Shown: positions 1 through 4,579 of the stretch, piece after piece
Layout of the letters: the number at the start of each line of letters is the position of its first letter
Position numbering within the stretch: position 1 is the first letter of the stretch
Source: a virus
Taxonomy: Duplodnaviria > Heunggongvirae > Uroviricota > Caudoviricetes
Strand: one strand, 5' to 3'
IMG/VR virus record: IMGVR_UViG_2675903578_000008
Length of the DNA: 4,579 nucleotides
Position numbers and translations under genes: made by a program
The notes under the pieces: generated by a model
Told to the model about the DNA's origin: nothing
The model's database searches: none
Seen by the model: the letters and a program-made list of their open reading frames with translations, nothing else

Positions 1-88
1 GGGACGGAAGTCGCTGTCGTTCTCAAAATCGGTGGAGCTGCATGACAAAGTCATCGGGCATTATCTGAACATAAAACACTATCAATAA
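1..88 (+). CDS. insB: IS1 transposase InsB, C-terminal fragment (5' end outside window)
   Basis: Codons from base 2 read [28 protein letters not shown], then TAA at 86-88, which is the known C-terminal tail of IS1 InsB. Confidence 0.85.
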   Translation, partial: [28 protein letters not shown]

Positions 89-103
89 GTTGGAGTCATT
101 ACC
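81..103 (+). repeat. IS1 terminal inverted repeat (IRR, 23 bp)
   Basis: atcaataagttggagtcattacc is the complement orientation of the IS1 terminal repeat GGTAATGACTCCAACTTATTGAT; the element terminates at 103. Confidence 0.8.
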
Positions 104-375
104 CGTTAAAACATCTGCAGATAATGACGTTGACTTGGATACAGATGGATTCAGACAACTGAGGATATCGTGCCCATCCCCTTCTGCCAGCGGTGCGATT
201 ATATTGAGAAAAGCTTCTTATGAATTCGGCAAAAGTATAGGTGTATTTGATTTTGCAAACAATGCATCACCAGCGACGATGACATTTTTGATCCCAATAT
301 ATAAAGATGATGATTTTGATTCAGATACTGTTGGTTTTACATTTGCGTTCAAGATGCCAAGAGGCCAGTTTTTTG
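104..375 (+). CDS. hypothetical protein fragment, unknown function; AT-rich, 5' end cut by the IS1 junction and 3' end lost in the masked tract
   Basis: A single stop-free frame spans the whole 272 bp of visible AT-rich DNA (about 39% G+C by hand count), reading ...SADNDVDLDTDGFRQLRISCPSPSASGAIILRKASYEFGKSIGVFDFANNASPATMTFLIPIYKDDDFDSDTVGFTFAFKMPRGQFF. The other two + frames hit stops immediately. It uses codons rare in enterobacterial core genes (ATA, AGA, AGG). I recognise no homolog. A shorter open frame also exists on the minus strand (about 51 codons, stop at 218-220), so strand is not certain. Confidence 0.3.
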
Positions 376-653
376 NNNNNNNNNNNNNNNNNNNNNNNNN
401 NNNNNNNNNNNNNNNNNNNNNNNNNNNNNNNNNNNNNNNNNNNNNNNNNNNNNNNNNNNNNNNNNNNNNNNNNNNNNNNNNNNNNNNNNNNNNNNNNNNN
501 NNNNNNNNNNNNNNNNNNNNNNNNNNNNNNNNNNNNNNNNNNNNNNNNNNNNNNNNNNNNNNNNNNNNNNNNNNNNNNNNNNNNNNNNNNNNNNNNNNNN
601 NNNNNNNNNNNNNNNNNNNNNNNNNNNNNNNNNNNNNNNNNNNNNNNNNNNNN
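376..653. other. masked or undetermined bases (N run, 278 nt)
   Basis: Contiguous n characters from 376 to 653. Confidence 1.
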
Positions 654-1961
654 TCATTTCGTGGCGTTCCGTTTTCGGTGGAGAGCGACGAGGGTTCGTT
701 CGGACGCCGCGTTCAGGTCCATGAATACCCAAACCGTGACAAACCGTACACGGAAGATCTCGGGCGTGCCACGCGACGGCTGACGATTAATGCGTATCTC
801 GTTGGTGATGATTACGCAGAGCAGCGCGACAGGCTGATTACAGCGATTGAAACCGCCGGGCCGGGGACGCTGATCCATCCGCAGTTCGGTGAAATGCAGG
901 GCTGTATTGACGGGCAGGTGACCGTTTCTCACTCCGGCACTGAAGGCCGTATGTGCCGGGTTTCATTTCAGTTTGTTGAGAGCGGGGAACTGTCATTTCC
1001 GGTCGCCGGAGCTGCAACCGCCAGAAAACTGGAGGAGTCGTCCGTATTCCTGGATGAGTTGATTGAAGACATGTTCGGCGATTTTGATCTCGCGGGAATA
1101 CCGGACTTTATTCAGAACGATGTTATTGCCCGGACGACCGATATGCTGGGAACCGTTCAGACAGCTTTCAAAATGGTTAATTCGGCTGTTTCTGCCGGAG
1201 CGAGACTACTGCAGGGCGATTTATCCGTCATTCTGATGCCGCCGTCGGTTGCCAGTGATTTTGTGCATACGTTGCAGGATACCTGGCGGGCCGGAACCCG
1301 GCTGGTGGATAACACACAGGATCTGGTGCAGTCCATAACGACAATGTCCGGCATTACGCTGGACCCAGGACTGGCACCGCGTGCGGTGTGGCCCACAGAT
1401 TCCGCATCGGTTATCAGGCAAAAACAGCAGACAAACCTTGTGGCTGCTGTCATCCGGACGACGGCAATCAGCGAAGCCACAAGGGCGGTCACTTCACTGC
1501 CACAACCCGGAAGCCTGGTGAAAAATCAGCAGGCGGTTGTGGCTGTTGGTGGTTCCACTGAACGTCAGTCCGATATTATTCACGTTTCTCATCCGGCACT
1601 TGACAGCGTGGCAGCCAGCACAGGACAGGATGAGAGAGCGCAACCACCCACGCGGGAAAATCTCACCATCATACGCAAATCGCTGAACGCGGCGATTGAA
1701 CAGGAGCTCAGGCGTACGGCGGATGACAGGCTGTTTTTTCAGCTGACGTCATTACGTACAGAACTGAACCGGGATATTCAGGCGCGTCTGGTTCAGACGG
1801 AGGAAACCGCAGAGCGAACGCCAGCGGAAGTTCTGCCTGCGCTTGTTCTGGCTGCGTCATGGTACGACGATGCGTCCCGTGAAACTGATATCCTGGATCG
1901 AAATGCCATCTCTCATCCGGGCTTTGTTCCGGTCAGGGCATTAAGGGTACCCGTCAGATGA
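654..1961 (+). CDS. Mu N/gp43-like DNA circulation protein (tail-associated); true start hidden in the N run, coordinates give the visible part
   Basis: Visible translation begins SFRGVPFSVESDEGSFGRRVQVHEYPNRDKPYTEDLGRATRRLTINAYL..., matching the conserved N-terminal motif of the DNA circulation protein family (ASFRGVPF...HEYP). Stop TGA at 1959-1961 overlaps the next start as ATGA. The position directly upstream of a P/gp44-like gene matches Mu gene order. Confidence 0.85.
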   Translation, partial: SFRGVPFSVESDEGSFGRRVQVHEYPNRDKPYTEDLGRATRRLTINAYLVGDDYAEQRDRLITAIETAGPGTLIHPQFGEMQGCIDGQVTVSHSGTEGRMCRVSFQFVESGELSFPVAGAATARKLEESSVFLDELIEDMFGDFDLAGIPDFIQNDVIARTTDMLGTVQTAFKMVNSAVSAGARLLQGDLSVILMPPSVASDFVHTLQDTWRAGTRLVDNTQDLVQSITTMSGITLDPGLAPRAVWPTDSASVIRQKQQTNLVAAVIRTTAISEATRAVTSLPQPGSLVKNQQAVVAVGGSTERQSDIIHVSHPALDSVAASTGQDERAQPPTRENLTIIRKSLNAAIEQELRRTADDRLFFQLTSLRTELNRDIQARLVQTEETAERTPAEVLPALVLAASWYDDASRETDILDRNAISHPGFVPVRALRVPVR

Positions 1962-3332: not shown

Positions 3333-3512
3333 NNNNNNNNNNNNNNNNNNNNNNNNNNNNNNNNNNNNNNNNNNNNNNNNNNNNNNNNNNNNNNNNNNNN
3401 NNNNNNNNNNNNNNNNNNNNNNNNNNNNNNNNNNNNNNNNNNNNNNNNNNNNNNNNNNNNNNNNNNNNNNNNNNNNNNNNNNNNNNNNNNNNNNNNNNNN
3501 NNNNNNNNNNNN
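3333..3512. other. masked or undetermined bases (N run, 180 nt)
   Basis: Contiguous n characters from 3333 to 3512. Confidence 1.
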
Positions 3513-3902
3513 CGACCCGTGTCGACCGGGGCTTCGATCGACCTTCTGACGCGTGCTGTGATTATTTCGCTTTTTACATGGCGGCGTGCCGGGCGTGATG
3601 ATGCACCACGGATATTTGGATGGTGGGGGGATACCTGGCCTGCGGTTCAGAATGATCGCACGGGGTCGCGTTTGTATCTGTTGCGACGCAGCAAGCTGAC
3701 AAATAAAACCCCGCAGCTTGCCAGAGATTATGTCCGTGAGGCGCTGGCGTGGATGGTGGAGGATGGTGTTGCTTCCCGTCTTGATATTAACGCTGTCCGG
3801 ACCGGGACAGACTCGCTGGCACTTGCCATTACCATTTACCAGCGTGACGGCAATATTCACAACATTATTTTTGATGATATCTGGAGTGAACTGAATGGCT
3901 GA
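3513..3902 (+). CDS. phage GP46-family baseplate protein (Mu V/gp46-like); 5' end hidden in the N run
   Basis: Visible translation ...IDLLTRAVIISLFTWRRAGRDDAPRIFGWWGDTWPAVQNDRTGSRLYLLRRSKLTNKTPQLARDYVREALAWMVEDGVASRLDINAVRTGTDSLALAITIYQRDGNIHNII contains the GP46-family hallmarks (SLFT.RRA, GWWGD, GSRL.LL.R.K.T). Stop TGA at 3900-3902 overlaps the next ATG (ATGGCTGA). Confidence 0.75.
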   Translation, partial: RPVSTGASIDLLTRAVIISLFTWRRAGRDDAPRIFGWWGDTWPAVQNDRTGSRLYLLRRSKLTNKTPQLARDYVREALAWMVEDGVASRLDINAVRTGTDSLALAITIYQRDGNIHNIIFDDIWSELNG

Positions 3903-4488
3903 CAGTCAGTTTTATCGCCCCGGCCTCCCGCAACTTATTTCTATGATCCGGAGCGATTTATTAACCCGCTTTGAGCAGGATACGCTGCTTCGTCGTATGG
4001 ATGCGGAAGTGTATGCCCGTGTACAGGCTGCAGCCGTACACACGTTGTACGGGTATATCGATTATCTTGCCAGAAATCTGTTACCGGACGTGTGTGATGA
4101 AGACTGGCTGTACCGGCACGCCAGAATCAAACGCTGCCCGCGAAAAGAAGCGGTGGCAGCCCGGGGATTTGTGCGCTGGGATGGCGTAGAGGGGACGCCG
4201 GTATTGCCAGCGGGAACGCAGATCCAGCGTGATAATCAGGTGACCTTTACCACGACGGCGACGGTGACCGCAGCCGATGGTCTTCTCCGGGTGCCTGTTG
4301 TGGCAGACGAACCGGGATCGGCGGGGAATACGGATGATGGTATTGCCATGCAACTGGGAACACCCGTCAGTGGTCTGCCGTCCACAGGGTACGCTGACAC
4401 CATTACAGACGGTGAAGATATTGAAAATCTGGAAATATGGCGTGCCCGCGTTATGGAACGTTATTACTACATTCCACAGGGGGGCGCA
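3895..4488 (+). pseudogene. baseplate J-like protein (Mu W/gp47-like), N-terminal 198 codons only; interrupted by IS1 at 4488/4489
   Basis: MADSQFYRPGLPQLISMIRSDLLTRFEQDTLLRRMDAEVYARVQAAAVHTLYGYIDYLARNLLPDVCDEDWLYRHARIKRCP... resembles the N-terminal region of Baseplate_J-family proteins. The native frame runs straight into IS1 sequence at 4489 and ends at an IS1-encoded stop (4567-4569), adding 26 foreign residues. Intact homologs are substantially longer (from memory). Confidence 0.8.
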
Positions 4489-4511
4489 GGTAATGACTCC
4501 AACTTATTGAT
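4489..4511 (-). repeat. IS1 terminal inverted repeat (IRR, 23 bp)
   Basis: ggtaatgactccaacttattgat at 4489-4511. Confidence 0.8.
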
Positions 4512-4579
4512 AGTGTTTTATGTTCAGATAATGCCCGATGACTTTGTCATGCAGCTCCACCGATTTTGAGAACGACAGC
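4504..4579 (-). CDS. insB: IS1 transposase InsB, C-terminal fragment on the minus strand (5' end beyond the window edge)
   Basis: Reverse-complement mirror of the left-end InsB tail; minus-strand stop TAA at 4504-4506. Confidence 0.85.
   Translation of the reverse strand, partial: [24 protein letters not shown]

Follow-up and report, generated by a model that had tools for sequence, protein, structure and literature searches.

Does a block of phage tail genes that begins and ends in oppositely oriented IS1 sequence represent a rearranged or mobile unit, or is it a piece of a draft assembly that stops inside a repeat? The question is raised by the window, the whole 4,579-nt stretch of DNA that was analysed, for which the earlier note had described a perfect 91-bp inverted repeat at the termini and had set a real IS1 geometry and an assembly signature against each other as alternatives.

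Terminal repeats and the full IS1 copies

A repeat search across the whole window returned two arms of 91 nt (13-103 and 4489-4579) with 100% complementarity and 4385 nt apart, confirming the terminal repeat as first described; the runner-up inverted repeat within the window measures 19 nt at 84%. A perfect 91-mer in 4.6 kb cannot have arisen by chance. The right arm reaches the window's final base, the left IS1 piece is 103 nt long, and the repeat is limited to 91 nt because the shorter contig overhang sets its length, which is an edge effect rather than biology.

The proposed check of both ends against annotated IS elements was performed, and window 1-103 matched IS1A/IS1B-annotated elements at 100% over the 103 nt in at least 5000 plasmid records. 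Translation of 2-88 gave the C-terminus of InsB, and the IRR tip (...AAGTTGGAGTCATTACC) is located at base 103 and, as its reverse complement, from 4489. The assignment of both ends to the same right end of IS1 in inverted orientation therefore stands, whereas their description as InsB-distal is misleading, since insB terminates 15 nt from the IS1 tip, at the end touching the segment. Both IS1 bodies extend outward from the segment, with their transposase genes transcribed towards it.

With the N runs set aside, every base of the window agrees with Shigella sonnei chromosomes (100% identity; L003 and L004 compared), and on this identity its origin is S. sonnei. For this species, 14 loci were examined, L003, L004, L008 and L015 among them; they come from 13 distinct assemblies, all complete or nearly so, of which Ss046 and 53G are two. 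L001, an intact E. coli prophage, served as reference. The exact 360-aa gp44-like protein is present in S. sonnei chromosomes (CP000038.1 and others). The full IS1 copies in S. sonnei begin with the IRL GGTGATGCTGCC... and end with the IRR ...GGAGTCATTACC, carry apparently intact insA and insB frames and match PF03811, PF12759 and PF03400 (InsA, IS1 DDE). In 11 of the 13 assemblies each of the two copies measures 768 bp, and L008 and L015 each have one copy of 767 bp; the copies of a pair are inverted and, if both have the full 768 bp, differ at 0-1 positions. The real inverted repeat in complete S. sonnei genomes is the entire 768-bp IS1, with 0 mismatches. The features of the window are collected in Table 1.

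Table 1. Features of the window; coordinates are window positions unless locus L003 is named.
Feature	Position	Strand	Details
Left IS1 copy, last 103 nt	1..103	+	InsB codons 2-85, stop 86-88, IRR ends at 103; element cut by contig edge
Counterpart of left IS1 piece	L003 8082-8184		End of the 768-bp IS1 at 7417-8184
CGTTAAAAC, target-site duplication of left IS1, inner copy	104..112		9 bp; same 9-mer directly outside left IS1
Small hypothetical prophage gene, 3' part	104..375	+	100% identical to L001 6001-6272
N run, 278 bases for 240 real	376..653		Covers end of hypothetical gene, terminator-like hairpin and start of DNA circularisation gene
DNA circularisation protein, Mu gp43-like, 463 aa	654..1961	+	PF07157 DNA_circ_N, E=3e-36; annotated in L001
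Baseplate hub protein, Mu gp44 / GpP-like, 360 aa	1958..3040	+	Four gp44/GpP domains
Baseplate assembly protein V, Mu gp45-like, 177 aa	3018..3332	+	PF06890, E=2e-26; 3' part in second N run
N run, 180 bases for 245 real	3333..3512		Covers gp45 end and gp46 start
GP46-family baseplate protein, 136 aa	3513..3902	+	PF07409, E=4.5e-33; 5' part in N run
Baseplate J/gp47, N-terminal 198 codons	3895..4488	+	Truncated by right IS1; PF04865 Baseplate_J on intact 360-aa homologue
GGGGGCGCA, target-site duplication of right IS1, inner copy	4480..4488		9 bp; same 9-mer directly outside right IS1
Right IS1 copy, last 91 nt	4489..4579	-	IRR tip at 4489; element cut by contig edge
Counterpart of right IS1 piece	L003 12597-12687		Start of the 768-bp IS1 at 12597-13364

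Two N runs (376-653 and 3333-3512) were absent from the earlier note. Neither keeps the length of the S. sonnei sequence that it replaces (278 versus 240 nt and 180 versus 245 nt), and the matching S. sonnei sequence consists of ordinary gene ends and starts and the terminator-like hairpin.

A draft contig between two real IS1 copies

In the 14 loci, the flanks are arranged in the order outer-left, inner-left, inner-right and outer-right, and both window junctions are linked on one molecule through two IS1 copies in 13 of 13 S. sonnei assemblies. These data bear directly on the reading that the inverted ends are purely an assembly artefact, with unlinked junctions or chimerically attached IS1 ends. 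That the contig stops exactly inside a high-copy repeat, as is typical of graph-based assemblers, would suit such a reading, but Ss046, 53G and 11 other independent assemblies each contain the two junctions on a single molecule and match the window sequence exactly, which leaves that reading with next to no credibility.

The segment is nevertheless found mostly as a short contig in draft assemblies and embedded between IS1 copies in long-read genomes. Exact matches to the gp44-like protein were found in 1509 collection blocks, in which the longest contig measures 2-5 kb in 1443 cases and >1 Mb in 37; for the IS1-truncated J protein, it is 2-5 kb in 186 of 226 blocks. The suggestion of a draft contig breaking at IS1 repeats is thus borne out, while its framing as an either/or choice against a real geometry was wrong, given that the two readings hold together. 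The window is almost certainly an ordinary short-read S. sonnei contig from a prophage in decay, flanked by two real IS1 copies in inverted orientation. Short-read assemblers would emit the 4.4 kb between the copies as a separate contig whose ends reach a k-mer-scale distance into IS1, because they cannot cross a pair of identical copies in a genome with hundreds of IS copies, and contig ends running into IS1 would therefore give the terminal inverted repeat. Repeat collapse is probably the reason that the contig ends where it does. As a lesson of method, a perfect inverted repeat that touches the two contig ends is best read at first as a repeat-collapse boundary.

Two insertions in a prophage baseplate module

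Pfam analysis of the interior matched DNA_circ_N, gp44/GpP, Gp45, GP46 and Baseplate_J in this order, all above the Pfam cut-offs, in agreement with the earlier description of a Mu-like baseplate segment. The small hypothetical gene, which sits between the tape-measure and DNA-circularisation genes and matched no Pfam family, encodes 160 aa in E. coli (L001 CDS 5900-6382) and is entered by the left IS1 about 100 nt into the gene. At the other side, the open frame of the truncated J gene reads into the right IS1 and stops at 4569 to give 224 aa, and the J C-terminal fragment is found beyond the right IS1 in complete genomes. The gp44-like gene contains a VNTR, (CTGGTG)n, at about 2507-2521, and, as compared with the E. 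coli copy, its C-terminus is shifted by an A7 tract at 2994-3000. The same S. sonnei prophage also has further insertions of the IS4 and IS3 families.

Intact prophages without IS1 at these two sites are present in 11 complete E. coli genomes, and the interior (104-4489) aligns with them colinearly at 97-99%. Alignment of L003 with the intact L001 resolved three plus-strand blocks, and the overlap between neighbouring blocks is precisely the 9-10 nt that are duplicated. Each IS1 is flanked by its own matched duplication in all S. sonnei loci, CGTTAAAAC/CGTTAAAAC on the left and GGGGGCGCA/GGGGGCGCA on the right, and both 9-mers are single-copy at their sites in the uninterrupted prophage L001. 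The junction expected on the tape-measure side of the left IS1 is ...TTTATTAGTAACGTTAAAAC followed directly by GGTGATGCTGCC..., and that expected on the J C-terminus side of the right IS1 continues directly into GGGGGCGCAGACCCTGATTA. A separate 9-bp duplication for each IS1, together with colinearity with the uninterrupted prophage, argues for two independent simple insertions into a prophage remnant, and this is what the arrangement is as judged by sequence comparison.

On this basis, the baseplate module belongs to a phiP27-like prophage that is degraded, has tail genes of Mu type and adjoins ssrA/smpB. One IS1 entered, in the plus orientation, the small hypothetical gene that separates those for the tape measure and DNA circularisation, and the other entered the baseplate J/gp47 gene in the minus orientation; each generated the usual 9-bp target duplication and inactivated its target gene. 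Since Ss046 and 53G share both insertions, we infer that both are older than the split between the S. sonnei lineages sampled.

The same geometry permits a different origin, in which the 4.4-kb segment has been turned round, or keeps switching, through homologous recombination between the two identical inverted IS1 copies, which would together form an invertible cassette. The two 768-bp inverted copies lie 4.4 kb apart with 0 mismatches, and IS-mediated rearrangement is reported to be frequent in Shigella (PMC8072062). This origin is nonetheless very improbable, as the segment still has the orientation of the intact E. coli prophage, the ancestral one, in 13 of 13 long assemblies, and an inversion would swap the duplication halves, whereas every IS1 keeps its own matched pair. 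Short junction sequences are the same in either orientation, and a pattern able to tell them apart has to cross the whole 768-bp IS1, so that the long assemblies are the informative ones. In these 13 assemblies the segment was seen in the ancestral orientation only, and neither the IS1-mediated inversion nor the deletion raised in the earlier note was found, the order and orientation of the intact prophage being preserved. No switch function is apparent, because both genes stay disrupted in either orientation. It is also very unlikely that the baseplate block inverts or excises at low frequency in populations of S. sonnei; if true, short reads would not reveal this heterogeneity, and the consensus sequences of the 13 long assemblies examined would not show it.

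Two complete inverted IS1 copies whose outer IRL ends look functional and whose insA/insB frames are apparently intact could also be taken for a composite transposon with inverted arms, which carries the baseplate genes as cargo and has arrived at this site or is mobile. The outer flanks differ, however (CGTTAAAAC versus GGGGGCGCA), so that no common target duplication surrounds the whole unit, and every S. sonnei locus (13 assemblies) has the unit at the same site. The cargo was not imported, because it continues the prophage on either side without a break in colinearity. Comparison of the cargo with plasmids gave no match, and there is therefore no evidence of mobilisation; the cargo joined to IS1 was likewise found in none of 5426 complete E. 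coli genomes. A composite mobilisable segment, as had been proposed, is not supported by a unit absent from plasmids and other sites, and the likelihood of such a transposon is vanishingly small. Target-site duplications and an uninterrupted homologue suffice to tell the two simple insertions from inversions or composite transposons.

Comparison with known systems

The ends in the window and the full copies in S. sonnei agree with the IS1 family (IS1A/IS1B-type, E. coli/Shigella) in the terminal 103 and 91 nt (100% identity), size, insA/insB and 9-bp duplications; this is a standard element without any difference in kind, of which the window holds the ends only. Tn9 is an IS1 composite transposon with direct arms, and Tn1681 one with inverted arms. 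The S. sonnei unit resembles these transposons in having two full IS1 copies that flank a few kb, with the inverted layout of Tn1681, and is unlike them in lacking an overall duplication and a second location and in carrying cargo native to its site.

Among phages, window 654-3332 is 96.9% identical to the Stx2e-converting phiP27, and the order DNA circularisation, hub (gp44), V (gp45), gp46 and J (gp47) is shared with phiP27 and related prophages. Compared with prophages of this type, the S. sonnei copy is a remnant, in which J and the upstream small gene are split by IS1, the gp44 C-terminus is shifted and IS elements replace head-side genes.

The closest setting is the IS expansion and genome decay of S. 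sonnei, whose chromosome has a median of 286 IS insertions by ISMapper, with IS1 as the largest contributor (Hawkey et al. 2020, PMC7373316). In line with this setting, the IS1 insertions of the present locus interrupt prophage genes, are common to several lineages and stand beside the IS4- and IS3-family insertions of the same prophage. The present locus is known, ordinary biology, with both insertions already contained in published references such as Ss046 and 53G. As two of hundreds of genome-decay IS insertions, located in a defunct prophage, they carry little biological weight, and the locus does not differ in kind from that expansion (PMC7373316), being one example among its hundreds of insertion sites.

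Identity of the window ends

Repeat analysis of the window paired bases 13-103 and 4489-4579 as an inverted repeat of 91 nt, 100% complementary and with its arms 4385 nt apart, and since the runner-up within the window was only 19 nt long at 84%, the perfect terminal repeat already described in the earlier note is far beyond chance. At least 5000 plasmid records contain elements annotated as IS1A/IS1B that match window 1-103 at 100%, and translation of bases 2-88 gave the C-terminus of InsB, identifying the left end as the tail of a plus-strand IS1 (Table). Because the right arm extends to the very last base of the window, the figure of 91 nt reflects only the length of the shorter contig overhang. 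The earlier assignment of both ends to IS1 was thus borne out, as was the presence of the right terminal repeat at both; its label of that end as 'InsB-distal' is misleading, however, since insB terminates at the IS1 end adjoining the segment of Mu-type baseplate genes and both transposase genes read towards this segment. All testable defining features of IS1, namely its ends, length, genes and 9-bp duplications, are present.

Table. Features of the window and of related loci (L001, E. coli FDAARGOS_944; L002-L005 and L011, S. sonnei)
Feature	Coordinates	Strand	Description
Left IS1 end	window 1-103	+	last 103 nt of IS1; right terminal repeat ends at 103
Right IS1 end	window 4489-4579	-	last 91 nt of IS1, start 4489
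N run	window 376-653		278 N replacing 240 real bases
N run	window 3333-3512		180 N replacing 245 real bases
(CTGGTG)n	window 2507-2521		1 unit in L001, S. sonnei 53G and L011; 2 in the window and L002-L006; 3 in eight other S. sonnei loci
Poly-A tract	window 2994-3000		A7 in S. sonnei, A8 in the intact E. coli prophage
Alignment block 1	S. sonnei locus 3461-7416	+	L001 2054-6009
Alignment block 2	S. sonnei locus 8185-12597	+	L001 6001-10411
Alignment block 3	S. sonnei locus 13365-15172	+	L001 10402-12209
ssrA and smpB	L005 18092-18454 and 18669-19151	- (18092-18454)	adjoin the prophage remnant end
IS4- and IS3-family transposase genes	L002-L005 1-2955 and 20133-21083		in place of head-side genes
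Tail sheath gene with ISEc60	L001 781-1971		split by ISEc60
ipaHe	L001 15275-16411		frameshifted T3SS effector gene after the intact prophage

Two IS1 insertions in S. sonnei chromosomes

Fourteen loci from 13 distinct S. sonnei assemblies, 53G (HE616528.1) and Ss046 among them, carried the four flanks in the same order and strand (14/14). The two full inverted IS1 copies anticipated by the earlier note are present in complete genomes: both measure 768 bp in 11 of the 13 assemblies, with 0-1 differing bases, and the single 767-bp copy in each of two loci (L008 and L015) is probably a consensus error. The left IS1 lies inside a 160-aa hypothetical gene, ~100 nt from the gene start, and is bounded on both sides by the 9-mer CGTTAAAAC; the right one follows codon 198 of the 360-aa J gene and is bounded on both sides by GGGGGCGCA. 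Each 9-mer is single at the matching place in the uninterrupted E. coli prophage, and the three blocks in which the S. sonnei locus aligned to L001, all on the plus strand, overlap there by exactly the duplicated bases. Judging from these individual duplications and overlaps, the arrangement is best explained by two independent simple IS1 transpositions.

The geometry had earlier been taken as that of an IS1-mediated inversion, deletion or composite mobilisable segment, a reading against which the matched duplications, the plus-strand blocks and a plasmid search giving no match to the segment all speak. Inversion between the copies would swap the duplication halves and reverse the middle block, deletion would remove one flank, and arrival as a composite transposon would leave a single duplication round the whole unit together with foreign cargo; none of these was seen. 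Neither the hallmarks of a composite transposon nor those of an IS-mediated inversion were found when tested for. A rare inverted subpopulation of S. sonnei is improbable but could go unseen in the consensus assemblies from which orientation was read here.

The prophage module and its surroundings

Megablast against 5426 complete E. coli genomes found window 104-4489 colinear with prophages in 11 genomes at 97-99% identity, all 11 lacking IS1 at either junction, and the segment joined to IS1 was not found among the 5426. The best reference, L001, is annotated in the order tape measure, hypothetical protein, DNA circularisation protein, baseplate assembly protein, protein V, GP46, baseplate J/gp47, YmfQ, hypothetical protein, tail-fibre genes and ipaHe. 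Pfam recognised DNA_circ_N, four gp44/GpP domains, Gp45, GP46 and Baseplate_J, each well above cut-off, and the nearest phage record is Stx2e phage phiP27 (96.9%). Identity to L001 is 99.7% over window 654-3332 but falls to 96.7% over 3513-4489, the stretch from GP46 into the N-terminal part of J; this suggests a mosaic ancestry of the module.

The hexanucleotide repeat in the gp44-like hub gene is a small in-frame VNTR giving hub proteins of 358, 360 or 362 aa. The 1-nt poly-A loss in S. sonnei alters the last gp44 residues (360 aa, with a 23-nt overlap with gp45), whereas the E. coli A8 version has 351 aa and ends at the gp45 start; the shift may reflect further decay or may simply be tolerated.

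The prophage remnant abuts ssrA (tmRNA) and smpB, a locus where prophages classically integrate; in S. sonnei L011 the tail-fibre genes are instead followed by a phage integrase gene. Additional IS elements interrupt the prophage in S. sonnei and in the E. coli reference (Table). ipaHe suggests that FDAARGOS_944 is a Shigella/EIEC-like strain; no ipaH gene was seen at the corresponding position in the S. sonnei loci.

A recurring contig of draft assemblies

S. sonnei chromosomes, including CP000038.1 (strain Ss046), encode a protein exactly matching the window's 360-aa gp44-like protein, and two S. sonnei loci (L003 and L004) agree with the window at 100% over all non-N bases. Scanning species-representative genomes for the left IS1 junction gave 0 hits. 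The N runs of the window, which resemble either arbitrary masks or scaffold gaps whose size was estimated, do not preserve the length of otherwise identical S. sonnei chromosomes, and the true IS1-IS1 distance is therefore 4412 nt, not 4385; the matching sequence is ordinary, comprising gene ends and starts and a terminator-like hairpin GCCGCCAGAAATTGGCGGTTTTTTT.

Among the collection blocks holding the gp44-like protein, the longest contig is just 2-5 kb in 1443 of 1509 and exceeds 1 Mb in 37; the same 2-5 kb class accounts for 186/226 blocks with the IS1-truncated J protein, a form that arises only through the right insertion. Because this class dominates for both proteins, the window is a contig recurring in S. 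sonnei draft assemblies, in agreement with the alternative in the earlier note of a draft contig breaking at collapsed IS1 repeats. As identical 768-bp copies are longer than short reads, a short-read assembler would be unable to cross them and would emit the unique 4.4 kb alone, with a short IS1 run at each end; the inverted contig ends would then simply mean that the two insertions point in opposite directions. We infer such a repeat collapse, which the block-size distribution strongly supports.

Published ISMapper counts put the median number of IS insertions per S. sonnei chromosome at 286, with IS1 as the largest contributor; in the three Shigella species covered by that study, the median share of IS1 is 42-59% (PMC7373316). 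The observation is genuine yet unremarkable: both insertions are already in published reference genomes, and the expansion of IS1 and the decay of prophages in Shigella are well described.
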